In this document: one piece after another, positions 11,897 to 45,572 of the stretch
How the letters are laid out: each line of letters starts with the position of its first letter
How positions within the stretch are numbered: position 1 is the first letter of the stretch
Source: a phage
Length of the DNA stretch: 45,624 nt
Strand: one strand, 5' to 3'
Assembly: GCA_033193195.1 (NCBI GenBank)
Contig: GCA_033193195.1_4326.1
Translations under genes and position numbers: made by a program
Notes under the pieces: generated by a model
Told to the model about the DNA's origin: nothing
Database searches by the model: none
Seen by the model: only the letters and a program-made list of their open reading frames with translations

Positions 11897-11941
11897 ACTA
11901 TACAGCAATCCGCGATTTGGTCTTTAACAAAAAGTGCTATC
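11897..11941 (-). promoter_or_regulatory. family promoter for 11615..11863
   Basis: minus-strand GATAGCACTTTTTGTTAAAGAC, TATAGT -10, CATCGAAACGAAA leader. Confidence 0.55.
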
Positions 11942-14614: not shown

Positions 14615-15562
14615 TTACTCAGTAAAGGTAATGCCTTTGATTACTGCGAAAGTTAGAGGCCTATAAATAACCAAGCCTGTGGACTTGGAAGTTACAGGGA
14701 ATCGGAAGTGCAAGTCGCGCGGCTGAGCAGGTAACACGTTAGTCGCTTCTGGAATCTCAATACTAGCATTTAATGCGTTCTTCTCAAATGCCAGTGCAGC
14801 TTTTCCATTTGCGCCATCGTAGTTATCCAGGACCTGCATGTAGCGCAAGGTGATACCTGGGTTATTGCGAGTAAATAACTCACCATAGCTTAAGGTTGTA
14901 TTATCAACCAGTCGCTGCATGTAGCGGCGAGCAGATGCTGGCAACAGAATGTCAGTTACATGGTGCAATCCTTGAGTACTGTTCTCAACCGCGTCAATCA
15001 TTGCGGTAATGTCGTTAACTGCGTTTTGCGGAACGCTCCAATTATGGGTTGCAACTACGTTGTTAATATTCGGATGGTTAAAAACACTTACGATTCCGTG
15101 CGGAGAAGAGCCGGACCATACCAGTTTATCGAGCAGGTTGTCGTGAGCCTCGAAAGCCAGAGCCTGTTTACGAGCAGACAATGGCTGACCAGTATCTGCG
15201 CCAACTTTAATCTCATCAACTGAGATCATAAACGCGTTACCAAAGCGGAATACTTTACCCTGCTTCTCTGTCATGAGCGCATCAACCAACGGCAGGTCGT
15301 CAGAGTAATCAGAGATAATCTGAGCAATACCAACACCATCAAACTCTGGATACTCGAAGTACTTCGCGTGACCAGGGATTTCATTGGTTACAGGAAAGAT
15401 ATTAACAACTGAGTTATCTGAGTATTCTTGTTCGTAAGCGCGATTCAGTGATGCGGTTAACTGCTTAACGGTCCAGATACCAGCAGCATCAGCCTTATCT
15501 ACACCCATTTGCTCAAGGTGAGCGGTGATTTTTGCTTGTTCTGCATCAAATTTAATGGCCAT
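14615..15562 (-). CDS. major capsid protein
   Basis: 315 aa, position after scaffold and decoration-like genes, strong terminator downstream. Confidence 0.7.
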   Translation of the reverse strand: MAIKFDAEQAKITAHLEQMGVDKADAAGIWTVKQLTASLNRAYEQEYSDNSVVNIFPVTNEIPGHAKYFEYPEFDGVGIAQIISDYSDDLPLVDALMTEKQGKVFRFGNAFMISVDEIKVGADTGQPLSARKQALAFEAHDNLLDKLVWSGSSPHGIVSVFNHPNINNVVATHNWSVPQNAVNDITAMIDAVENSTQGLHHVTDILLPASARRYMQRLVDNTTLSYGELFTRNNPGITLRYMQVLDNYDGANGKAALAFEKNALNASIEIPEATNVLPAQPRDLHFRFPVTSKSTGLVIYRPLTFAVIKGITFTE

Positions 15563-15670
15563 TCTTGTTTATTCCTTTTCAGTTAGGTATGTGCGAGTCA
15601 ATTATACACGACTTTGTGGTTGTTACAATAGCATCATACATGAGGATTAAATCTGGATGGCAAAAGACAC

Positions 15671-18104: not shown

Positions 18105-19365
18105 TGATTGTTACCTCTGTCTCAATTGAACCGTCACCAATCTTAACCTCAGGGGCTAATGCGCGCAAGGTATCTCGTGCTTCGTCTGCATCCATCACGC
18201 CGTTAGTGATAAGAGCAGTAATTGAATCAACGTTATTCTTCAGTGTTTCAGCGCGGTCTTTCTTCGATTCCTGAGCTAGAGGGTTAAACTCAACTGACCA
18301 TTCTTGCTCGGTTGTGATGAACGGGATTAAGAACCCAAGAACTGGAAGTAGCTCTTCGTTACGCTTGCGGTCAATCAACTTATGGAATGTCTCTAGCGCT
18401 GTGTTTTGGCTAGATGATAACCCGCCAACGTTACGACCCTTGAGAATGATTTCATGGATACCGCTCAGAGCAACAATTCTGTCGAACTTCTTATCGAGGA
18501 ATCCATCAATCCCACCAATATCCGAGTTAAGAACGCTGTACTCTTCAGCTTCAGCGTCGATACCAATCGCGCGACCAACGCCAGAGTTATCATCAACCTG
18601 GGCAAGCCTCAACCTGGCCGCACCAAAACCTTCCGCGTCGTCACACAGTTCAGCAAGGCCTTTAGCCTTCCACACCGCCTGCTGCTTGCGGCGCAATAAC
18701 TGAGTTGCCAGTTTCTCACACGTCTGATAATCCTTGATTGATTCAAGCAGGTCAGGAACCAGAACGCTAGCACCCCACCCGTCATTACCGCGACGCAATG
18801 AACTAGGAATCTTCTCGCCATCCATAATGTGAACTCGCGAGTAGTGCACATCATAAAACATGGCGCCACCTTCTGGCGTGATGCGGTACGTTAATGGCTT
18901 ACCGAATCGCACATTGCGAGGGTTTTCCTCCTTAGTCTGAACTCTTACCTGGCTACGCTCATAAACGCGAAGTGATTCAAGTTCCGCGCCTTCACGTACC
19001 GGGCTGGTTAGCGCACGATTGTCCTTAACGATAGCCACAATTGCAGAGCCGCCAAATAACCTCGCCCATGACCATGCGTCAGAGATTGACTCGTTAACCT
19101 TCAGGTAATCCCACCTGGACCAGAATTCACCTTCGTCATCAATACCATCGATATGGAAACCTGCGGCGATTGCTGTCTCCGGTATGGTGTCGACGATGCG
19201 GCGTACAATTGAGTTTGATGCGTACAGTGAATCAGCGAAAGGAGGTGTAAGATACGTGTTGCCAAAGTGCCCGTAAATCTCGCTACCATCACTGGGGCCA
19301 CCAAGAAATTGCGTGGCGTATGAATCTGCTTTTACCATTTTATTTGCTCCAATAAAAAGCCCCAT
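18061..19365 (-). CDS. portal protein
   Basis: 434 aa, downstream of terminase large subunit in packaging module. Confidence 0.7.
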   Translation of the reverse strand: MGLFIGANKMVKADSYATQFLGGPSDGSEIYGHFGNTYLTPPFADSLYASNSIVRRIVDTIPETAIAAGFHIDGIDDEGEFWSRWDYLKVNESISDAWSWARLFGGSAIVAIVKDNRALTSPVREGAELESLRVYERSQVRVQTKEENPRNVRFGKPLTYRITPEGGAMFYDVHYSRVHIMDGEKIPSSLRRGNDGWGASVLVPDLLESIKDYQTCEKLATQLLRRKQQAVWKAKGLAELCDDAEGFGAARLRLAQVDDNSGVGRAIGIDAEAEEYSVLNSDIGGIDGFLDKKFDRIVALSGIHEIILKGRNVGGLSSSQNTALETFHKLIDRKRNEELLPVLGFLIPFITTEQEWSVEFNPLAQESKKDRAETLKNNVDSITALITNGVMDADEARDTLRALAPEVKIGDGSIETEVTINETSEDPLEVPADN

Positions 19366-22571: not shown

Positions 22572-22647
22572 TGGTGTTCCGCACTGGACTCGAACCAGTA
22601 ACTAAGACTTAGGAGGTCTTTGCGTTATCCTGTTACGCCAGCAGAAC
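22572..22647 (-). tRNA. tRNA-Arg (anticodon CCU, decodes AGG)
   Basis: 76 nt cloverleaf by hand: acceptor GTTCTGC/GCGGAAC (one G-U), D stem GCGT/ACGC with GG loop, anticodon stem AAGAC/GTCTT, loop CTCCTAA, T stem ACTGG/CCAGT, T loop TTCGAGT, encoded CCA. Confidence 0.8.
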
Positions 22648-24588: not shown

Positions 24589-24620
24589 CGTCAATTCCTC
24601 ATCTCGTTTTGATGGGATAA

Positions 24621-24664
24621 GTATAACAACCTATCCCAATTCATGTTTAGCAAAAAGTGCTATT
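24621..24664 (-). promoter_or_regulatory. family promoter for 24409..24588
   Basis: minus-strand AATAGCACTTTTTGCTAAACAT, TTATAC -10-like. Confidence 0.5.
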
Positions 24665-25286: not shown

Positions 25287-25886
25287 ATTCGTTACTCCTG
25301 ATTGGTTGCTCTTCGTTAAGATGAAACCATGGTATCATGAATATACGCGTTATCAAGTGTTATGTTGTGTTTATATCTGCATTGGTTACGCTTTTTGACC
25401 TCTCAGCCCAGCTATAGCTGGTGTAATTACCCTGTGTAAGATTTTACGCGGATTCGCCGGGGGTATGCATATGTATCTATATAGATAAAATTAGTAGTTT
25501 TCATAGAAAAACTATCGACCCATCAATACGACCAATCTACACCATATACATACATATATATAATAATAATAATAATATAGTAAAAGGTTGATATATATAG
25601 ATATTATTATGTAACCATTGCGTAATCTAGCGTGGTAGGCGTGTATGATTCTTCGGAAGCGCACCTCATATACACACCATAACTTCGATAACGTGTATAT
25701 CCAAATTGGCTCAGCAAGAATCAAAATCAACTTGTATGGTAGTTCATCCACCATTCATTCACCCTCACATCAATCATTGCAAATCCCGCAACAATCAAAA
25801 ACATCATTGCATTCGATGCAATATTGTTATATGTGCAATAGTAAGATTAATCATTGCAATATCTGCAACAATAGATAAATCCAACG
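25287..25886. promoter_or_regulatory. control region A: AT-rich noncoding divergent-promoter region, paralogous to 45108..45572
   Basis: shared blocks with region B (CAGCCCAGCTATAGCT; ATAATAATAATAATA..GGTTGATATATATAGATATTATTATGTAAC); palindrome TATCTATATAGATA; TTGCAA-core repeats 25760..25880. Confidence 0.6.
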
Positions 25887-26896: not shown

Positions 26897-26928
26897 TACT
26901 CCATCGAAACGAAAGAGAGCAAGAGATC

Positions 26929-27646: not shown

Positions 27647-27676
27647 TAATGCATTATAAGCGGCTATTGATATAAT
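27632..27676 (+). promoter_or_regulatory. family promoter for 27706 gene
   Basis: AATAGCACTAATTGATAATG, TATAAT 27671..27676. Confidence 0.55.
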
Positions 27677-27705
27677 GGCCGCTCAGAACAACACGGAGAG
27701 AAGTA

Positions 27706-31024: not shown

Positions 31025-31055
31025 TTTTGAATCCTCTGTTGTTTTCGATGTAGTA

Positions 31056-31100
31056 ATTATGCCGGATTACTCCGGCGATTGTTTAGCAATTCGTGCTATT
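31056..31100 (-). promoter_or_regulatory. family promoter overlapping 3' end of dNMP kinase gene
   Basis: minus-strand AATAGCACGAATTGCTAAACAA, CATAAT, leader CATCGAAAACAAC. Confidence 0.5.
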
Positions 31101-33400: not shown

Positions 33401-33652
33401 TCATTCAACCTCTTTTAACCAGAAATCCAACAAATCAGCACTAATTGCTAATTTTTGGTCCATGTCTGTCATGCACAGATTACCGCACGCTGGAGAGTAG
33501 TAAATCTGTACCCATTTACCGTCCTTCGTCTTCGCGTTAACATCCACATAGTCAGGTGGAAACCAGTCATCAATAGGTATCGCTATAAACCTGGCTCCGC
33601 TACTACCATGCACTAAATCATAATGCTTTGGCTGGAAATCTAATCCAAACAT
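33401..33652 (-). CDS. hypothetical protein
   Basis: 83 aa ORF. Confidence 0.4.
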   Translation of the reverse strand: MFGLDFQPKHYDLVHGSSGARFIAIPIDDWFPPDYVDVNAKTKDGKWVQIYYSPACGNLCMTDMDQKLAISADLLDFWLKEVE

Positions 33653-34440: not shown

Positions 34441-34478
34441 TTTCTTTCTCTCTTTGTGTGTTTCGTTTCGATGAGTTG

Positions 34479-34525
34479 ATAATACACCAACTCACCAATT
34501 CGTCTTTAGCAATTCGTGCTATTTT
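34479..34525 (-). promoter_or_regulatory. family promoter for 34246..34440
   Basis: minus-strand AATAGCACGAATTGCTAAAGAC, TATTAT, CATCGAAACGAAACACAC. Confidence 0.6.
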
Positions 34526-34939: not shown

Positions 34940-36649
34940 TTAATCCTCCATCGTGAATGATTTGTTGGCGATAATGTCTTGAGACTTCTGGTTTTTACGG
35001 TGTGTGATTCTCAATGGGGCACGGAATAGATGTGCATTTGTCATAATCATTCTAGCATTACGCAATCTGCCAATTCTGAATGCCTCAGTCCTGTTATCGA
35101 TGTGTGTTAAGCAGAAAGCCTTCCATTTAACAGAGCAAACGCGATGGTCTGATTCAGGGAAGAATGTTTCATAAGCTCGGAACTTATCTCCACTATGAGC
35201 CATTACCTCATATGAAGCAACGATCCCTGACTGGTTCTTTGTTAACCCAATCTTGAAGTCATAAACTCGCAACCAGTCCCCCTTACGATACATTTTTCCT
35301 GATAACTTAGCATTCGGGTCTATGAGCATCTCACCACAGCATCTGCAATTCTTAGCTGCAATATCATTCTTCTCACCGCATCCTTTCTTAATGATAGCTT
35401 TGGTCTGTGGGTCCACTATATCTTCACACAGTCTAAACTGAAAGAAGTGCTCACAGCGCTTCCCGTCAATTACGTTATTGCAGCGCCTGGCTAATGGAGA
35501 GTTCACATAAGAGCATGCCTGACAGATTCTTGGCTCACCAACACGCTTTCTTGCTGACCTAAATTTCTGGTCTTGTACCTCTTCTATAATTGGGTCGAAG
35601 TAAAGTTCAGCCATATCATCAAGCGTTCCAGCAAAATCAAGAACAACATGGTCATCTTTTACCATTCCAGCTTCTTTGTGCTTCTTCTTAAGGATACGCA
35701 TACCACGACCAAGCAACTGAATGAGTAGAGTAATGCTACCAACCTTCCTCAGGATAATGCTTGTATCCCACGGGGGGCAGTTTACGCCAGTTGTGAGGCA
35801 ACCAATCTGAAATATGAACTTATATTCTCCGTTGGCTGCCTTCTCAAGTATCTCTCTACGCTTATTCTCACCAGTGGAGTTGGTAACTATCGCCCAAGTA
35901 ACACCTTCTGGAAGTGCGGCTGCCGCCTCCTCGCAATGCTGTTTGCTAGCGCAAGTTACCAATGCAGCATTCCTTGTTTCCATAAACCTAGCAGCAAATC
36001 CCATTATCTTTTGTGTCATCGTTTGGTTTTCGTGAATCTTTGCAGCCATCGCATCCATTTCTTTCTTGCTGAAGTCCTTAACCCCATCACTTCCATCAGG
36101 AGTGAACTCACTAAGGTCGTAGCCCAAATCACCAACTTCACCGTAGACAGTAGGAACAACGAACCCCAAGTCAACAAGGTAGCTGGTTGGCACTTGCATT
36201 ACAGTTTTGCGCCAGAATCCACGGACATTTGGGTTACTAACTACAATGTGGTCGTTGTTACGGTACGGGCTACCAGTTAACCCAAAGATACGAAGTTCGC
36301 GACCGTACTTCTCCTTGCATCGACGCTTCATTTCGGTAATGATTAACGTGTATTGCGCGCGACCAGTGCCAAGAAGCCCGGTATTCACACCATCCTTAAA
36401 GACCATCTCACCCTTCTTCGTGCTCATCTGCTCGAATGTTTCCTCATTCTCTTCAGCTTCTACGATATCCATATGGTCCACCATGTGGCAATTATGTGCC
36501 ACGACCCCGTCAGCAATGAAATTATGGTGCTCAGGCATCTCTATATCCCAAACAAGTTCCTTGCCAATGGGTGAGATGTCTTTAATTTTGCTTGATTTTG
36601 TATTCCACGCCATTTTACATGTGCTTACTAATTCTCTTAAAAAACTCAT
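34940..36649 (-). CDS. SF2 helicase C-terminal fragment preceded by intein C-terminal splicing segment
   Basis: N-term ..ELVWDIEMPEHHNFIADGVVAHN then CHMVDH; helicase motifs LTGSP and QLLGRGMR; C-terminal Cys-rich zinc-finger-like region; ATG 36649 with GAGG upstream. Confidence 0.75.
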   Translation of the reverse strand: MSFLRELVSTCKMAWNTKSSKIKDISPIGKELVWDIEMPEHHNFIADGVVAHNCHMVDHMDIVEAEENEETFEQMSTKKGEMVFKDGVNTGLLGTGRAQYTLIITEMKRRCKEKYGRELRIFGLTGSPYRNNDHIVVSNPNVRGFWRKTVMQVPTSYLVDLGFVVPTVYGEVGDLGYDLSEFTPDGSDGVKDFSKKEMDAMAAKIHENQTMTQKIMGFAARFMETRNAALVTCASKQHCEEAAAALPEGVTWAIVTNSTGENKRREILEKAANGEYKFIFQIGCLTTGVNCPPWDTSIILRKVGSITLLIQLLGRGMRILKKKHKEAGMVKDDHVVLDFAGTLDDMAELYFDPIIEEVQDQKFRSARKRVGEPRICQACSYVNSPLARRCNNVIDGKRCEHFFQFRLCEDIVDPQTKAIIKKGCGEKNDIAAKNCRCCGEMLIDPNAKLSGKMYRKGDWLRVYDFKIGLTKNQSGIVASYEVMAHSGDKFRAYETFFPESDHRVCSVKWKAFCLTHIDNRTEAFRIGRLRNARMIMTNAHLFRAPLRITHRKNQKSQDIIANKSFTMED

Positions 36650-37629
36650 CTTGTGCCGACCTCGTTGTTATTGATACTGAGTAAAGCTCTCTCTTTTTCT
36701 TGCCGCAAATATAGCTTATAACCTTAACTCCGTCATTAGCAATAAATGCTATTAGCGCATCAACTACTGATTGAACTTCACGCCTGCTAAATGATTCGGT
36801 GTGGATTTCTACAACCCTCCCCCCTGAGCTTACAGTGCAATGACCATCATCACCAAAGTAAGCAGCCCAACCAACTGGATCAAGCTCTCTGCATATCTTT
36901 CCAATATCGTAACCATCCTTAGAATTTCCGTACTTATCAGCATATGAATCCAGAACTTTCGTACATGATGTTGATACGCAAAACCAGTTGTCGCCAAATC
37001 CAGGGTTTTTCTTCTCCCTGTATCTAGGGTTTAGTTTTGCAAACCTTTCAACCTTGCTTAGTGCGTGCTCCTTATTTCCATATTCCAAGATAGCCTATGC
37101 GTTCCTTTTTCTGTATTTTTAATCAAGCAACCATCACCAGCCATTGCCGCAAGAATGTTTTGATGTAAAAAGTCATCAACCTCCATTTATGGGTTGACGG
37201 TTGAATTATGATGCCCCGTTCTGTAATCCAAATAGAAATCGAAAGGGTTCTTAAGAAGTACGCCTAACCCCTTGCTTGAATGCGGCATAACTTTTTCACC
37301 ACAGCCACACTTGCACGCAGAAGCTTTTTCGTAAATTTGTCCTGCGAGCCGTCTAGCGACAGATTCATCCCAATACGAAGTTTTCCCGCTTCTACCCAGC
37401 AGCCGTTCGAATAAAGTTTGTGTGTACTCGTGCATTTTATTTCCTCTCCGCTTTCTAATTTAATTGATAATACATGTCTTACACCATTAGTAAAAACTCT
37501 TTTTGGCTTATGATAGAAGTAATCACCAGTGCTTTCGTTTATGCATTTTATTTTATGATTGATAAGGTCTTCGCTATCAATCCTCATCATCCCTGAATCG
37601 GTGGTTATCATCGTGTCTCCAGTTAAGCA
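36491..37629 (-). other. intein inserted in helicase DECH motif; LAGLIDADG endonuclease core disrupted
   Basis: blocks CLTGDTMITT and CTSTHKL..W in N-extein frame; ILAAMAGDGC and WAAYFGDDGHC in two other frames; in-frame TAA 37187..37189; length 1139 bp is not a multiple of 3. Confidence 0.7.
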
Positions 37630-38073
37630 CTCATCTATCGCGATAACAGCAGGAGCATAGTCACCAAGCCCCTTAAACAAGCCGTTAGCAGCCGTTCCCT
37701 CACTAGCCACTATGGTTGGATAGTAAACTGATTTAACGTTAAGGCCAGCGCAATAGACGCTATTACGGATGCCGAAATTACGAAGTTCCTCTGCGTTCTG
37801 GCTGATAATCTCTGACTGGCGAGATAGGACCATGTAAGGAAGGCCAAGCTGTTCCATTCGTTTCCCAATCATGGCGAGTATAATTGTCTTACCAGCAGAC
37901 ACCGACAGGTCTGCGATGAATGGCGCTTCGTACTTGCCAATAGCCTTACCGATTGCGTCAAATGTCACGCACTGGAATTCGTAAGGCGTTATGTCTCCAA
38001 ACTGGTAATCTTTCTGAATCTGTTTAATTTTCTCTTTATCAAAGTTCGCCACTAAGCGCTCTACTGGAAGCAT
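37264..38073 (-). CDS. SF2 helicase N-terminal fragment fused to intein N-terminal splicing segment
   Basis: Walker A SVSAGKT, ..VIAIDE then CLTGDTMITT; stops 121 codons into intein. Confidence 0.75.
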   Translation of the reverse strand: MLPVERLVANFDKEKIKQIQKDYQFGDITPYEFQCVTFDAIGKAIGKYEAPFIADLSVSAGKTIILAMIGKRMEQLGLPYMVLSRQSEIISQNAEELRNFGIRNSVYCAGLNVKSVYYPTIVASEGTAANGLFKGLGDYAPAVIAIDECLTGDTMITTDSGMMRIDSEDLINHKIKCINESTGDYFYHKPKRVFTNGVRHVLSIKLESGEEIKCTSTHKLYSNGCWVEAGKLRIGMNLSLDGSQDKFTKKLLRASVAVVKKLCRIQARG

Positions 38074-38112
38074 TTTAAATATCCCTACAGTTTGTTAGTT
38101 CGTTGCATTGCT

Positions 38113-38158
38113 GTATAATAACAATTATCGAACCTATTGTTTAACAAAAAATGCTATT
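38113..38158 (-). promoter_or_regulatory. family promoter for helicase N-fragment gene
   Basis: minus-strand AATAGCATTTTTTGTTAAACAAT, TTATAC/TATTAT -10-like. Confidence 0.5.
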
Positions 38159-38169
38159 GAGGTAATGAG

Positions 38170-38643
38170 ATGTGTGAAATTGACAAGCGAACTATCAACG
38201 GCAATAACGGAACCATCCGCACGCAAGACAAGAAACAGCGCAAACGACCGTCAGGCTACTACGTATTGAAAGATGAAGTAAAGGCTGGGCTACGAGCTCG
38301 TCTGGAGATGGTTCTTGATTTCTACGGCACGAAGGCCAATATCGCCAAGCAGTTAAATGTATCTCACCAGACTGTAGAGCAATGGTTTGATCGCGGGATG
38401 ATTTCGGCTAGAGGTGCCCAGAGGGCTCACAATGCATACAAGCGAAATAAGGAAGGCTTTAGAGCTACGTTCTGCCGACCAGACCTGCAATTCGACGGAA
38501 ACGGTAAGCCATTAACGCTTAGATGCAAGAAACGCCATATGCTGCGGGTTGTTACCGAAGCTGAACTAGCAACAAAGCCACCATGTCGACCATGGCGCAA
38601 GAATAAGATTGCCAACGAAGCAGCACGAAAAGCTAAAGATTAA
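38170..38643 (+). CDS. HTH DNA-binding protein, candidate transcription regulator
   Basis: GTKANIAKQLNVSHQTVEQWFDRG helix-turn-helix-like segment; GAGGTAA SD. Confidence 0.55.
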   Translation: MCEIDKRTINGNNGTIRTQDKKQRKRPSGYYVLKDEVKAGLRARLEMVLDFYGTKANIAKQLNVSHQTVEQWFDRGMISARGAQRAHNAYKRNKEGFRATFCRPDLQFDGNGKPLTLRCKKRHMLRVVTEAELATKPPCRPWRKNKIANEAARKAKD

Positions 38644-38649
38644 ATAATT

Positions 38650-38680
38650 GGATGTGCCATAATCGGTACATCCTTTTTTA
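38650..38680 (+). terminator. rho-independent terminator
   Basis: GGATGTGCC-ATAATC-GGTACATCC then T6. Confidence 0.6.
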
Positions 38681-38694
38681 TTGGGGAGAAGAAA

Positions 38695-39174
38695 ATGAAC
38701 TGGCATGATTATTTTTACTATGTAGATGGCAAATTGCATTGAAAGATTAGCACTGCAAGACGTGTTAAGGTTGGCGATGAGTGCAACTCACTATCTACAT
38801 CTGGCTATTACAAAGTGTCTGTTAATGGCTTTAGGACTTATGTACATAGAGTTGTGTGGGAGATGTTTAATGGAGAACTTCAAAATGGCGACTACATTGA
38901 TCATATAAACCATAACAAATTAGATAACAGAATAGAAAACCTAAGAGTAACAACAAATCAAGGTAACTCAAGAAATTGCAAGCTTAGCGTTTTATCAACA
39001 ACTGGTTATTGTGGAGTGGCAAAGCTAAATCACGGAAAATTTAAGGCTTACATCAAGGTTGACGGCAAGCAGCTACACCTTGGTAACTTCGATACTCCAG
39101 AGCAGGCGTATAAAGTAAGAATTGAAGCAGAGAGAAAATACAACTTTCACGAAAATCACGGTTTAAGCAAATGA
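38695..39174 (+). pseudogene. HNH-AP2 homing endonuclease-like gene with in-frame TGA at 38740..38742
   Basis: MNWHDYFYYVDGKLH-stop-KISTARRVKVGD (Trp expected in G.L.WK motif); HRVVWEMFNGEL..DHINHNKLDNRIENLR HNH; YCGVAKLNHGKFKAYIKVDGKQLHLGNF AP2-like; GGGAGA SD. Confidence 0.65.
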
Positions 39175-40094
39175 ATTACGATAAGAATGAAGTTATACCT
39201 AAGATGGCCGGATTGTGGAAATCATTTTATGCAAAGGAACTTGGTTGGAATGATAGACACCTAAGTAAGAAGCACGGACCATGCCCATACTGCTTTGGCA
39301 CTGACAGATTCAGATTTACCGACGAAATAGGCAGTGAAAAAGGAAATGGCGCGGCAATTTGTTCGAAATGCGGAAGTGACTCCGGTATAGGGTGGGTCAT
39401 GAAGTGCACTGGATTGTCCTTCGCCGATTCAGTAAATTTGCTTGGTGACTGGCTGAACTTAACACCAATTGAGGTTATAGTTAAAGCTAACAAGCAAGCA
39501 TCAAGAACGCTGCGTTATAAAATGGGCGCTCAAGTAGACCACAAGAAAGTTCTTGAGGTCATGAAGAGGACTCAGCGAGTTGAATCTAGTCCACTCACGA
39601 CATACGAGGGTATTTATGACGAGTTTGGTTTTGATGTTGGTATAGCTAAAAATGGTTCAATGATTCACGCAATCCCTTGTTCGATGGTTTATGAAGATGG
39701 GCTTAGTGATGAGTTCTGTAACGTAATGTTTATTGATGAGGATTCAAATGTTAAGTTCCTTGCTGGTGATTACACTCGTGATTCTGTTTCCGTTATTGGT
39801 TCTAAGCAGGATGATAGTTATACTTATGTTGTTGACAATTATATTGATGGCATACGTGTTCACCTTGCTACTGGTGGGCGCGAAGTGTTTGTTGCTTTCT
39901 CCTGTTACAATATGGAGATGGTTATCCACCGAGACAAGTCAAGGAAGTTCAGAATTGCTTGCCGTGATTCTGATATCGATATCCTTGCTGTTGCTGACGA
40001 TAGGTGTGTTGATGTGGTGATTCCTAACGACGGTAAGTCATTTAAAACAGGCATACGAAAGAAAGTGTACAAAGCCAACGACTTGCTAAACTAA
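39171..40094 (+). CDS. DNA primase (zinc-ribbon + TOPRIM-like)
   Basis: HGPCPYCFGTDRFRF..CSKCGSDSG zinc-binding pattern; acidic D.D and DG motifs in C-terminal half. Confidence 0.6.
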   Translation: MNYDKNEVIPKMAGLWKSFYAKELGWNDRHLSKKHGPCPYCFGTDRFRFTDEIGSEKGNGAAICSKCGSDSGIGWVMKCTGLSFADSVNLLGDWLNLTPIEVIVKANKQASRTLRYKMGAQVDHKKVLEVMKRTQRVESSPLTTYEGIYDEFGFDVGIAKNGSMIHAIPCSMVYEDGLSDEFCNVMFIDEDSNVKFLAGDYTRDSVSVIGSKQDDSYTYVVDNYIDGIRVHLATGGREVFVAFSCYNMEMVIHRDKSRKFRIACRDSDIDILAVADDRCVDVVIPNDGKSFKTGIRKKVYKANDLLN

Positions 40095-40116
40095 CCTCCT
40101 TCGGGAGGTTTTTTAT
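40093..40116 (+). terminator. rho-independent terminator
   Basis: AACCTCC-TTCG-GGAGGTT then T6. Confidence 0.75.
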
Positions 40117-40137
40117 TGCCTGAAAGATGGTAGAATG

Positions 40138-40160
40138 AATTTTAGCAATTCGTGCTATTT
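40138..40160. promoter_or_regulatory. orphan copy of family element in opposite orientation to the downstream gene
   Basis: TTTAGCAATTCGTGCTATTTT with no consensus -10 in either direction. Confidence 0.4.
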
Positions 40161-40179
40161 TACAAATGGAGACTTTACA

Positions 40180-42714
40180 ATGGCAATTTATGACTTAGGA
40201 ACAGCATCACTAGCCTCAAATGGCGAGGTTACTGGCGTAGGTACTACATGGAAAGCACCTCTTACACTGATTCGTGTAGGTGCTACTATCATTTTCAAAA
40301 CCAGCCCTCTGAAAATTTACACCATCTCTGAAATCATCAGCGATACTCAGGTTAATGTTTATAATCCAAGTTCTGAAACTGTTCCCGCTGGTACTGGTTA
40401 CGCAATTCTTGCTCATGATGGAATTACTGTTCAGGGGTTGGCGCAGGATGTTGCGGAAACATTGCGTTACTACCAGTCAAAAGAGACTTCTATTGAAAGT
40501 CTACTGCAATTTATTGGTCAAGATACTTTTGATTGGCCTCGTTTTGAACAACTGGCAACTCAGTCAACTACCGGAGCTGCCGAGGCGCTTGCTAGTCAGA
40601 TCTCTGCCGCTGAGAGTGCCTCTACAGCGGTAGGTGCTAGCAATAACGCACAAAATTCATATAACAGGACGGTTGAAGCAATAAATGCGGCTGGAAATAC
40701 AGCGGCTGTTGCTTACTTTGCTAATCACGGAATAGGTAGCACGACAACGCCATTACTTACCTCTTTAGATTGGCAAACAATGCAATTTTATTCCGGAGGT
40801 CGTTATCAGTGCACACTTGGGAATATGTTAAACACCCCAAAAGAAATTAGTTCAATGTTTCCGGTTTCAACAACTCCTATTTGTATTGATGTTATTGCAA
40901 CTAGGGGTGTTAATTCGGCTAATGTATTAAGGTTATCTCCGTCTACTGGGTCAAACTCAAATTTTAGGATTGCAGATGTCACAATTTCTGGTGCGACTGG
41001 ATCTAGGGTTTTTTATGTAAGGGAAGTACTAAGCTTGCCTGGCGGTGATGCTGCAACTGGTGGATCAAGCGCGTCAAGGGTTAGGGGGTTGCTTGATGTT
41101 TACTCAAAATCCGAGACGTTTCAAAAATCATTGAATCTTTCAGACATTGCAGATAAGTCCGTGGCAAGAACCAACCTTGATGTTTACTCAAAGGGTGAGG
41201 TGTCATCAATTTTAAATACAGATTCAAAAAGCACATCAAGCTATAGAGGCTCAATATCTTCAGCAATAGAAGCCGCTGGCGATGGCGGGTCGGTAGTTAT
41301 AAGCCCGGGAACTTATGAGAGTAATAACTACTCCTTTGCTGGCAGTAACATATCAGGCTCTGGATATAATACCGTAATAAGTGTTAAACCTTTTGAAACC
41401 GGACTCACCTCAACGCTATCTGTTCCGCACTGGAGGCAAAAGCATTTATCGGATTTGCAGTTTACAGGTACTGCAATACAAGGTAATAACGGCTTTCAAT
41501 TCCCGGATGACCCTTATGCTGGAAGGGTTGTATTGGATAGGCTTTACTTCAATGACCTGGATGTTGGTATAAGGAAAAATGCTGGCAACATTGGAAATAC
41601 CTACAGAAACGTAAGTATTAGAAATGCGAATTACGGGTATCGAGCCAAAGCTCATGACAAAATGCATATAGGAGCGGACACTTTATACGGATACCACTCA
41701 GATACAATCTATCAATATTCAGTAATGCTAGATGCGACAAGCACAAGTAGCGCAACGAACCCTGTTGCTGGAGGAATTGGTGGGTGGTGGATTAGGGATT
41801 CAATAATGGAGGCCTCTGCTGGCGGCGGTATAAGGTTAAAGAATAAACCTGGAGATTGCCCAACATCACCTTGCGGATTGTCTAACGTATGGTTTGAAGC
41901 GATAGCAACTGGGGGAGCAATTAACGTAGGTGAGGGAGCTGAACTCCCAAGGGTTTTGAAGCTCATCGATACGTCCGTTTTCTTTGCTGAGCATTCTTAT
42001 ATTAATAACATTGAGTTATCAAATTCAAACCTTGTTACTTACGGTTGCAGGTTTGATAACGCTGATGGGCATCAAAGTTTCTCTCTTGATTCGAACAGTA
42101 TTATTTTTGCTAAGGATGCATACCTGAATGGATCTTCAACATCAAGCGTTATAGTTGAGTCACTGGTATCACAGACAGCCAAGATAACGGGTACATCTGA
42201 CTTATCTGTTAGAGGATATGTTACTAAAGGTCGAGTTTTTAATCCCGATTCCGGAACTGTTTTAGTCAGGAGGCCTTTTGGTACTGGTGGGAACAACTTT
42301 GGTGGAACAGGGTCGTCAATTGAAGGTTCTGATACAAGGGGTATACACTCGCAATCATCTGGATACTACGAATTTGCTGGTGCGGCTCAGTACGAATTGA
42401 TAAATGGTGGCTTTAATATAACTTCCGGAAAATGGTATGCTTGGGGTATTTCTGCAAACAGGATTCAAGGCGGTGCTGATGGTATTATAAACATTTTTGG
42501 TAGCGCATCATTAGGCCGTGTGTTTACTGAGGGTGGTAAGTGGGTTCATACATTTGGCGTTGGTCAGGCTTCGGTTTCTGGCGTTGCAAACCTTAACATT
42601 AACCTCAATGGATTAACTGGTATGGTATTAAGCCTTGCTGATTATTTTGTTGTAGAATTTGATAATCAAAGGGACGCCTTGATATTTGCAAACTCAAGAG
42701 TTTCTCTTGCATAA
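40180..42714 (+). CDS. tail fibre / tailspike-like protein (lateral fibre candidate)
   Basis: 845 aa, Gly/Ser/Thr/Asn-rich repeats; start 40180 with GGAGA SD (track start 40135 lies inside the motif). Confidence 0.55.
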   Translation: MAIYDLGTASLASNGEVTGVGTTWKAPLTLIRVGATIIFKTSPLKIYTISEIISDTQVNVYNPSSETVPAGTGYAILAHDGITVQGLAQDVAETLRYYQSKETSIESLLQFIGQDTFDWPRFEQLATQSTTGAAEALASQISAAESASTAVGASNNAQNSYNRTVEAINAAGNTAAVAYFANHGIGSTTTPLLTSLDWQTMQFYSGGRYQCTLGNMLNTPKEISSMFPVSTTPICIDVIATRGVNSANVLRLSPSTGSNSNFRIADVTISGATGSRVFYVREVLSLPGGDAATGGSSASRVRGLLDVYSKSETFQKSLNLSDIADKSVARTNLDVYSKGEVSSILNTDSKSTSSYRGSISSAIEAAGDGGSVVISPGTYESNNYSFAGSNISGSGYNTVISVKPFETGLTSTLSVPHWRQKHLSDLQFTGTAIQGNNGFQFPDDPYAGRVVLDRLYFNDLDVGIRKNAGNIGNTYRNVSIRNANYGYRAKAHDKMHIGADTLYGYHSDTIYQYSVMLDATSTSSATNPVAGGIGGWWIRDSIMEASAGGGIRLKNKPGDCPTSPCGLSNVWFEAIATGGAINVGEGAELPRVLKLIDTSVFFAEHSYINNIELSNSNLVTYGCRFDNADGHQSFSLDSNSIIFAKDAYLNGSSTSSVIVESLVSQTAKITGTSDLSVRGYVTKGRVFNPDSGTVLVRRPFGTGGNNFGGTGSSIEGSDTRGIHSQSSGYYEFAGAAQYELINGGFNITSGKWYAWGISANRIQGGADGIINIFGSASLGRVFTEGGKWVHTFGVGQASVSGVANLNINLNGLTGMVLSLADYFVVEFDNQRDALIFANSRVSLA

Positions 42715-42742
42715 AAAAAGCCCCGAAAGGGGCTTTATCTTT
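42713..42742. terminator. bidirectional terminator
   Basis: A7-AGCCCC-GAAA-GGGGCT-TTATCTTTT. Confidence 0.7.
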
Positions 42743-42744
42743 TA

Positions 42745-43176
42745 TCAGAATGGAATATCTCCGTCGAATGTGTTTTGCTGTTGTGGTTGTTGCTGTTGCT
42801 GTTGCGGTTGATGGCGCTGTTGTTGCTCTGTATTTTTATGTTGCTGTACACCATCACCACGCTGACTAAACTCAAGACGAGGATTGTTCATGTTAATTGT
42901 TATGTAAGTCTTGCCATCTTTATCTCGAACATCTAATGCTAACGTCTCACAACTTACGCTAACAATCTTCCCTTCCTGAAACGCCTCGTTATACCATGCA
43001 AGCATTGATTCCTTTGCGAAGAAGACGGCACGATAGTTGCTATACTGAGATTGACCATCTTTATCCTTGTAACGCTCACTTAAATCAACCGCGTACATCT
43101 TCCAACTTCCATTTGCATTCTGACCTTCTTTAGTGAAAGGAGCGCGACGGATAACACCAGTGATTACATGACTCAT
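42745..43176 (-). CDS. single-stranded DNA-binding protein
   Basis: OB-fold-like N-terminal half, Gln/Pro-rich linker, acidic C-terminal tail DGDIPF. Confidence 0.8.
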   Translation of the reverse strand: MSHVITGVIRRAPFTKEGQNANGSWKMYAVDLSERYKDKDGQSQYSNYRAVFFAKESMLAWYNEAFQEGKIVSVSCETLALDVRDKDGKTYITINMNNPRLEFSQRGDGVQQHKNTEQQQRHQPQQQQQQPQQQNTFDGDIPF

Positions 43177-43867: not shown

Positions 43868-43897
43868 TCCCCATCTCTCTTTCGTTTCGATGGGGTA

Positions 43898-43944
43898 ATG
43901 ATACCCCACCTGTTAATTTTGTCTTTAGCAATTAGTGCTATTTT
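43898..43944 (-). promoter_or_regulatory. family promoter for annealase/SSB unit
   Basis: minus-strand AATAGCACTAATTGCTAAAGAC, TATCAT, CATCGAAACGAAAGAGAG. Confidence 0.6.
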
Positions 43945-45107: not shown

Positions 45108-45572
45108 TTCTCTATCTCTCTATTTTTGCGTGCTTTCGATTAGTTAATGATGCCGCACGCAAGACACACAGTCCAATTGGTATCACCGATTAATTAATCA
45201 AGTATACGCGTATAAATCCGTAACTACGTGTAGACATTGCCATTAGTTACGTTTTTCACCACTTCAGCCCAGCTATAGCTCAATGTAAATAGTGCGTATA
45301 CCGTGTATACCGATTTTTGCGGAGGGTGCATAGGTATATGCGCCACGCAATACTGTATAAAATCACATTATATAAAAATTATAACCGGAACACTCCAGAA
45401 CAGTAGTTACATGATATACACAGTAATATATATAATAATAATAATAAGAGTAAATGGTTGATATATATAGATATTATTATGTAACTATGGCGTATCAAAG
45501 CGTAACTAGGCGTATACGATTTCCCGCTGATGCATATGGTATACATAGAGTTACATCGGTTACGCGTAACCA
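45108..45572. promoter_or_regulatory. control region B: AT-rich noncoding divergent-promoter region paralogous to region A
   Basis: same conserved blocks as 25380..25650; palindrome GGTTACGCGTAACC at 45558..45571. Confidence 0.6.

Follow-up and report, generated by a model that had tools for sequence, protein, structure and literature searches.

The lac O1 operator has its centre at +11. Other regulators of transcription are dimers of the Cro/cI fold for which activation takes place from about -42 and repression from sites that overlap, as is the case for lambda cI at OR2 (PRM/PR) and for the C-proteins of restriction-modification systems. Cro/cI-fold proteins typically are dimers on dyads whose half-sites lie one helical turn apart, and several of them both activate and repress. 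In mycobacteriophage L5, the prophage repressor binds to stoperators, asymmetric sites of 13 bp that act only when oriented with transcription, inside transcription units (literature cited in PMC11447400). Finally, UP elements, the sites of the alpha-CTD, are A/T-rich and located at -40 to -60, upstream of their promoter.

The closest described system is the direct repeat of the T1-like phages, known since the T1 genome paper. In phage TLS, this 21-nt repeat, aaATAGCACnnnTTGnTAAAA, is found at 21 sites and it also occurs in T1, Rtp, and Rogue1; the TLS repeats were catalogued in 2024 as DR1-DR18 by Kropinski and co-workers (PMC11447400). The repeats were described as pointing along transcription, about 76 nt before start codons, in a genome where only three sigma-70-like promoters were found, and roles as stoperator, enhancer site, or UP-like element were suggested, none being assigned (PMC11447400). 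The searchable literature yielded no usable transcription-start, binding, expression, or transcript-map data for T1-like phages.

The DNA studied here (the window, i.e., the whole stretch of 45,624 nucleotides that was analyzed) comes from such a phage. Indeed, the matches of the region 38000-42800 are Escherichia phages of the Drexlerviridae (T1-like), subfamily Braunvirinae, with AN_ECEAS and ES on top (90.5% identity). The window contains the repeat family of TLS. With up to three mismatches, the family 18-mer ATAGCACNNNTTGCTAAA has 17 copies (2.23 +/- 1.57 expected), a number reached in none of 100 shuffles. The core dyad TAGCA-N5-TGCTA occurs 15 times (2.04 expected) and a 23-mer version of the element three times (0.00 expected). 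Downstream of the 18-mer, at 19-21 nt, a [T/C]AnnnT hexamer is present in 14 of the 17 copies, against a chance rate of 0.108 per site, and after the hexamer of ordinary copies there is usually a leader resembling CATCGAAACGAAA, then an RBS and a gene. If the hexamer is set as -12 to -7, the centre of the dyad falls at about -42, in the place of the -35 hexamer, and the family promoters are devoid of a canonical -35. Canonical -35/-10 pairs are almost absent from the non-coding DNA of the window, where only seven sites match 10/12 positions, the promoters of the capsid and regulator genes among them. In T1, repeat and promoter are arranged in this way at about 20 sites.

The leader motif CATCGAAACGAAA itself, a few nt 3' of the -10 of repeat-type promoters, is found at about 12 sites in the window (for example 742-754, 26902-26914, 34461-34473, and 43880-43892) with unrelated genes downstream. 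Between repeat and leader, repeat-type promoters also carry strong inverted repeats whose sequence differs from promoter to promoter, the -10 often being in the loop or in the 3' arm. Their mean z score against shuffled sequences is -2.4 for 13 promoters of the window and -3.1 for 16 promoters of T1. Examples are at 43890-43906, 34470-34497, 27659-27680, 24608-24636, and 31049-31062 in the window, and there are many in T1. Since they mostly lack a T-run, they are not classic terminators. These variable inverted repeats may be the most unusual feature of the repeat-type promoters; the fibre promoter described below has no such hairpin.

One copy of the family lies between the primase and lateral tail fibre genes, within positions 40138-40160 (AATTTTAGCAATTCGTGCTATTT). 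Its 18-mer is identical to those at 31082 and 34505 (Table 1). The original prediction had recognized this element and placed it between a terminator of the primase gene and a fibre gene starting at 40180, in the orientation that elsewhere drives minus-strand genes, with no such gene behind it. This description holds. The stem and T-run of the terminator were recovered by a terminator scan, and the terminator is also kept in the junction alignment of relatives. Annotation of the relatives and alignment agree on the fibre start. Minus-oriented copies at 11923, 19807, 23509, 24646, 31082, 32169, 34505, 38140, and 43924 are each upstream of a minus-strand gene. Behind the fibre copy, the only candidate is a 57-aa antisense ORF (39905-40078) having a TTG start and a Shine-Dalgarno sequence 16 nt away; it is not conserved and was discarded.

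Table 1. Features of the fibre and regulator loci (window coordinates; +1 is the predicted or promoter-derived start)
Feature	Position	Strand	Remarks
Helicase gene		minus	next to regulator gene
Regulator promoter TTGTTA-16-TATAAT	38092-38119	plus	among the few canonical promoters of the genome
-10 of divergent helicase promoter, TATTAT	38120-38115	minus	overlaps regulator -10; upstream element is the repeat 38140-38157
Backwards repeat in regulator leader	38140-38157	minus	about +15 to +32, just before the Shine-Dalgarno sequence
Transcriptional regulator gene, 157 aa	38170-38643	plus	phrog_2856
HNH endonuclease gene			between regulator and primase genes
Primase gene	39171-40094	plus	stop codon 40092-40094
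Rho-independent primase terminator	40093-40116	plus	stem AACCTCCttcgGGAGGTT at 40093-40110, then T-run; terminator scan
Extended -10 TGgTAGAAT (TGGTAGAAT)	40128-40136	plus	TG 40128-40129, hexamer TAGAAT 40131-40136; motif scan
Family 18-mer copy ATAGCACnnnTTGCTAAA / ATAGCACGAATTGCTAAA	40141-40158	minus	zero mismatches; opposed to fibre gene
Predicted fibre mRNA start	40143	plus	7 nt past the -10 hexamer, +/- 2 nt; from standard -10 to +1 spacing
Palindromic core TAGCA-ATTCG-TGCTA	40143-40157		about +1 to +15 of predicted fibre transcript, centre about +8
Fibre Shine-Dalgarno GGAG	40168-40171	plus	from sequence
Fibre start codon ATG	40180-40182	plus	agrees with annotated starts in AN_ECEAS, AugustePiccard, CEB_EC3a
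Lateral tail fibre gene, 844 aa	40180-42714	plus	PHROG tail-fibre families, E 3e-134 and 3e-129
ssb, Erf, and exonuclease VIII genes		minus	after fibre gene

Like the published TLS repeats, the fibre copy is intergenic (between the primase stop at 40094 and the fibre start at 40180). It is identical to DR2, DR5, DR13, and DR15 over ATAGCACGAATTGCTAAA, and it matches aaATAGCACnnnTTGnTAAAA with zero mismatches over ATAGCACNNNTTGCTAAA, the flanks being aaa/a. Unlike them, it faces away from the sole adjacent gene, about 22 nt before the start codon of that gene, and has neither a -10 nor a leader of its own. Thus, a known repeat family is found here in a novel positional context.

An in-frame ATG at 40135, specific to the window, would add 15 codons to the fibre ORF and run through the repeat (40135-40179). 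This N-terminal extension was rejected, as that ATG is missing in relatives; hence, gene callers that choose the longest ORF may misplace the fibre start.

Could the copy nevertheless work as a promoter on its own strand? An antisense promoter, driving a minus-strand transcript into the primase gene, had been one of the proposals. The orientation fits, and some matches can be found: the 3' end of the repeat reads TGCTAAAAT (40147-40139), an extended -10 match present in this window only, TTGCCA-18-TAAAAT is found at 40186-40157, and a backwards copy of T1 (18833-18850) has TAAGAT at the family spacing. However, at the place where the family hexamer is expected the minus strand has GGCAAT (offset 20), with no [T/C]AnnnT at 19-21 nt. 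The same search extended to 27 distinct homologous junctions, from GenBank and IMG/VR loci, gave no -10 hexamer at offsets 18-22 and no TAnnnT at the family spacing in any of them. In the relatives, the T at -7 is mostly lost and the spacer is 20 nt. Neither TGCTAAAAT nor TTGCCA-18-TAAAAT is kept as a match in relatives, and both were set aside as promoter candidates, as was TGCTATTTT (40153-40161) as a plus-strand -10, for the same reason. Behind the copy, the minus strand reads the reverse complement of the terminator and then antisense primase sequence, with no conserved leader, RBS, gene, or ORF. A promoter scan gives 6 sites vs. 6.0 in shuffled sequences. Because the copy lacks a -10 here and in the 27 junctions, and because no conserved minus-strand ORF follows, it is not a promoter of the family type, and an antisense promoter appears very improbable. 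An UP element was also rejected: the one -10 that is conserved comes before the copy, not after it, and some positions of the family are always G or C (GCAC, TGC).

That conserved -10 is on the plus strand. It had been stated that no -10 consensus was present either way, which does not hold for the strand of the fibre gene. An extended -10, with TG at -15/-14, A at -11, and T at -7, lies immediately upstream of the repeat and is kept in all relatives of an alignment of 16 fibre junctions. These junctions were collected by protein similarity, not by motif, and cover Braunvirinae, Rogunavirinae, Tunavirinae, Tempevirinae, Nouzillyvirus, and Webervirus. All 16 carry TGnTAnnAT: no change is seen in TG, TA, or the last T, the A preceding that T is present in at least 90%, and the n positions vary. 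As the motif is common by chance, with 157 matches in the window, it is conservation, and not the match itself, that argues for this element. Four of the 16 junctions (Sf12, a Rogunavirinae contig, G29-2, and TSK1) have the extended -10 without the repeat; the element thus appears to be the ancestral fibre promoter, independent of the repeat. The fibre junction of TLS differs, with TTGCAT-17-CATAAT and only a decayed repeat-like stretch.

Taken from the alignment, the extended -10 is, with good confidence, the sigma-70 promoter of the fibre gene, needing neither a -35 nor the repeat. It resembles the extended -10 (TGn) class of sigma-70 promoters in having TGnTAnnAT, no required -35, and a plausible spacing of the Shine-Dalgarno sequence and start codon; in contrast with the known members of this class, its start is a predicted one. 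The annotation would be corrected in that the lateral tail fibre gene has its own conserved extended -10 promoter. This is relevant to fibre engineering in Drexlerviridae, for instance in the BASEL phages, the fibre being the determinant of host range.

Comparison of the junction among related phages, a check that had been suggested, shows the fibre copy conserved at the same place and in the same orientation in Braunvirinae, Tunavirinae (T1), Nouzillyvirus, and Henuseptimavirus. The core does not change among the 27 distinct junctions, except for one central C/A position and a TAACA half-site in Henu7, whereas the linker of 6-7 nt and the spacer upstream differ widely. The core follows the -10 after 6 nt in Braunvirinae, the window included, and in CJ19, after 7 nt in T1-type phages, and after 12 nt in Henu7. 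The variants of the fibre copy (TTAACA in Henu7, central C/A) are those also found among ordinary family copies, which indicates that one and the same DNA site is recognized. When IMG/VR was scanned for exact matches to the composite (extended -10, 6-7 nt, reversed repeat), 33 loci were obtained, 24 of which are T1-like, T1 and Rtp genomes included, and all 24 lie directly upstream of a fibre ORF. The other nine come from one sample (3300045988) and were set aside as unrelated sequence representing one site in another phage group. These nine contigs of 46-92 kb (L018, L028, L031, L034, L036, L037, L043, L045, and L049) share TGTTAAAATCATAAGTAGCAATTTGTGCTA, an exact composite match, and are unrelated to T1-like phages. 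A second composite in the window, at 43911-43940, has one mismatch and no plus-strand gene; it was discarded as a by-product of an ordinary minus-strand family promoter.

The repeat is missing at the fibre junction in Rogunavirinae, Hanrivervirus, Webervirus, and TLS, and is thus dispensable there. Its presence in both major clades of Drexlerviridae suggests, on comparative grounds, an old feature that was lost repeatedly. An invariant core beside a variable linker indicates purifying selection and argues against a scar or a neutral relic. Hence, the dyad at the fibre junction is very probably under selection as a DNA site. The suggestion that the copy could be a decoy or binding site survives in spirit, since a core that is invariant in 27 junctions next to a variable linker occupies what would be an operator position at a conserved promoter.

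The copy could also be a relic, the upstream half of a former divergent promoter of a minus-strand gene, which may still bind a factor with no effect on the fibre gene. Its orientation is that of minus-strand promoters, gene order near the fibre gene varies by lineage (TSK1 has ssb upstream, on the same strand), and several lineages lost the copy while the extended -10 stayed. On the other hand, a neutral remnant is expected to decay, as its -10 did, whereas this one has zero mismatches and a core that is invariant in junctions from at least four subfamilies or genera, adjacent to a linker saturated with changes. Its spacing to the plus-strand -10 is fixed as well, at 6-7 nt in most relatives (Henu7 being the exception). 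A relic is therefore unlikely.

The third proposal, a recombination scar at a module junction, may be extended to that of a linker: the shared 18-mer would serve as a module boundary for the exchange of fibre cassettes. The locus is syntenic across Drexlerviridae, where conservation of the fibre gene is confined to its 5' end (PMC8594841). In favor of the idea, it is also the most mosaic part of these genomes (PMC8594841). However, the mosaicism sets in past the conserved fibre N-terminus and thus away from the repeat, and the primase gene and the fibre 5' end already give far longer homology. A scar or linker would also leave unexplained the fixed spacing to the -10, the strict orientation, and a perfect copy at the same place across several lineages. 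This origin has hardly any probability.

Being at the extreme 5' end of the predicted transcript, the palindrome might instead act as RNA, as a 5'-terminal hairpin of the fibre mRNA with an effect on stability or translation. UAGCA and UGCUA can indeed pair around a 5-nt loop (-3.8 kcal/mol). Yet, this is a weak helix, and the leader as a whole does not exceed shuffled sequence in structure (z = +1.0). The Henu7 variant falls to 0.0 kcal/mol with no compensatory change, and the loop is conserved like the stem, as for a DNA site. The covariance models of Rfam 15 gave no match at E <= 1 over 39900-40400. An RNA element is improbable.

As to the protein that would bind the dyad, only one regulator is annotated in the window (38170-38643). 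AlphaFold2 models it with confidence (pLDDT 87), and a fold search with this model points to a helix-turn-helix fold of the Cro/cI/XRE type; the sequence search against the PDB was less informative, with only marginal matches to Cro (E 0.3). Homologues are found almost only on contigs of T1-like size. The regulator and fibre promoters have the same arrangement, in that no repeat is upstream and a backwards repeat is immediately downstream of each -10. For the regulator, a backwards repeat in the promoter or leader is present in Braun-, Roguna-, Tuna-, and Tempevirinae, and the layout of the regulator and helicase promoters recurs in CEB_EC3a, AugustePiccard, a Rogunavirinae contig, T1, and TLS ('P57' and 'DR11' in the latter). 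The Cro-fold regulator is thus the most likely factor on the repeat, as a candidate linked to it by circumstantial evidence. A host protein such as Lrp is an alternative that we keep as a lead. With the Lrp SELEX consensus YAGHAWATTWTDCTR, which is very degenerate, the fibre copy scores 12/15 and the family cores 12-13/15. Five of the seven window sites scoring at least 13 against it are family copies, and the consensus does not contain the invariant C of TAGCAC.

The divergent promoters at 38092-38157 overlap fully and share their -10 region, in a manner that resembles a genetic switch and that is kept in Braun-, Roguna-, Tuna-, and Tempevirinae. The plus-strand module has three promoters, one for the regulator, one for HNH and primase, and one for the fibre. 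The second has a degenerate forward repeat, GCAGCACGAAAAGCTAAA (about 38618-38673, plus strand), 20 nt upstream of CATAAT. This CATAAT is in the loop of the regulator terminator hairpin, so that terminator and promoter are fused, as they also are in G29-2, Henu7, and Sso008.

From the sequence, the positions, and their conservation, which are observed, we infer where transcription starts, that the dyad is bound, in which direction the factor acts, and which protein this factor is, as follows. The regulator would be made early, from its host-type promoter, and its dimer would bind the dyad. Where the dyad lies at about -42, it would stand in for the absent -35, and the bound factor would activate the approximately 14 family promoters. 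At its own promoter, the factor would favor the divergent helicase promoter and block its own transcription. At the fibre gene, a dimer centred at about +8, across the start site, would block binding or escape of the polymerase. The fibre is a virion protein that would be needed in few copies and whose gene lies amid replication genes; its expression would be lowered or timed, and a gene within the replication/recombination module would thereby gain an expression programme of its own. With the same dyad at about -42 and at about +8, a single factor could turn the family promoters on and, simultaneously, turn the fibre gene down or time it.

Tentatively, we favor this reading, in which the fibre copy is not a promoter but may be an operator, through which the factor of the family promoters, most likely the Cro-fold regulator, would repress or time the extended -10 fibre promoter. 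Against it, it is not obvious why a virion gene should be repressed with the activator of most promoters. The same conservation would also fit a positive or architectural site, where the factor aids the fibre promoter, for instance by keeping the polymerase or the factor nearby or by shielding the promoter from read-through of the primase terminator, and everywhere else the repeat goes with active promoters. However, the dyad at about +8 is inside the polymerase footprint, activation from such a position being rare among bacterial promoters, and the lineages devoid of the copy retain the same promoter. An aid to the promoter is thus distinctly unlikely.

The putative fibre operator can be compared with the systems mentioned above. 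As for operators of the lac O1 type, the site is symmetric, with half-sites one helical turn apart, and is located between -10 and +20 of a sigma-70 promoter. Unlike lac O1, its binding protein and the repression are only predicted, and the same site is used about 14 times near -42 in the same genome. The likeness to lambda cI and the C-proteins would reside in the modelled Cro/cI/XRE fold of the candidate regulator, in the family dyad near -42, which is also the position of class-II activators, and in the overlap between the regulator promoter and a divergent, repeat-dependent promoter. In contrast to lambda cI, the phage is virulent, with no lysogeny module, and there is a single site per promoter instead of tandem cooperative operators; activation and autorepression are here only deduced, which also sets the case apart from the C-proteins. 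Finally, the L5 stoperators share with the present family a short site in many copies across a phage genome and the importance of orientation. They differ from it since the repeats of this virulent phage are at a fixed distance upstream of -10 hexamers.

It is conceivable, if rather doubtful, that virulent T1-like phages run most of their transcription via one Cro-fold protein and one dyad, with activation from about -42 at some 14-20 promoters and repression from about +8 at the fibre gene or, at the gene of the protein itself, from about +15 to +32, where the dyad overlaps a divergent promoter. If so, a bifunctional master regulator would have as its operators the direct repeats known for 20 years, a natural experiment to this effect would be provided by the backwards copy at the fibre gene, and a switch of the lambda cI kind would exist in a phage without lysogeny. 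Opposite effects of the same protein at -42 and at +8 are the testable prediction. Because a role as promoter element is impossible for it, the fibre copy allows 'binding site' and 'promoter hexamer' to be told apart, and it gives clean access to what the T1-like repeats do.

Backwards copies are also found elsewhere. T1 has one at 15069-15086, ahead of a terminator that closely precedes the major capsid gene, where TLS has DR7; one at 103-120, at the left end of the genome; and, upstream of the gene for the tail chaperone, the one at 18833-18850, which has TAAGAT at the family spacing and might thus drive antisense transcription. With such differing contexts, one role shared by all backwards copies may be doubtful. 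In the window, a backwards copy with three mismatches, TCAGCACTAATTGCTAAT (33435-33452, plus strand), is contained in the 3'-terminal part of a gene on the minus strand (phrog_4596, 33401-33652). It precedes the DNA-repair exonuclease gene by about 115 nt and has no -10 at the family spacing. The capsid gene promoter of the window, TTGTAA-16-TATAAT (15601-15650, minus strand), has a -35 that overlaps a lone TGCTATT half-site, which may be a remnant of the backwards repeat that T1 has there.

Other features of the window were noted. The helicase gene is split (34940-38073, minus strand): 37264-38073 corresponds to positions 252-385 of phrog_16 and 34940-36649 to positions 392-761, the relatives having a single gene of 664 aa. 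Between the two parts, about 1.2 kb includes a 157-aa ORF without PHROG match (36615-37088) and an internal repeat-type promoter (36735-36752, with TATATT). This insert may be an intron, an intein, or a mobile insertion; a search at the Rfam gathering score gave no group I intron. A tRNA gene (22575-22647, minus strand; Rfam RF00005, 58.9 bits) is located in a region of small ORFs. Finally, 25367-25633 and 45228-45503, at the two strand-switch regions, contain stretches of about 100-270 nt that are 74-75% identical and very A/T-rich (TATATATAATAATAATAATA...), and these may be origin or early-promoter regions.
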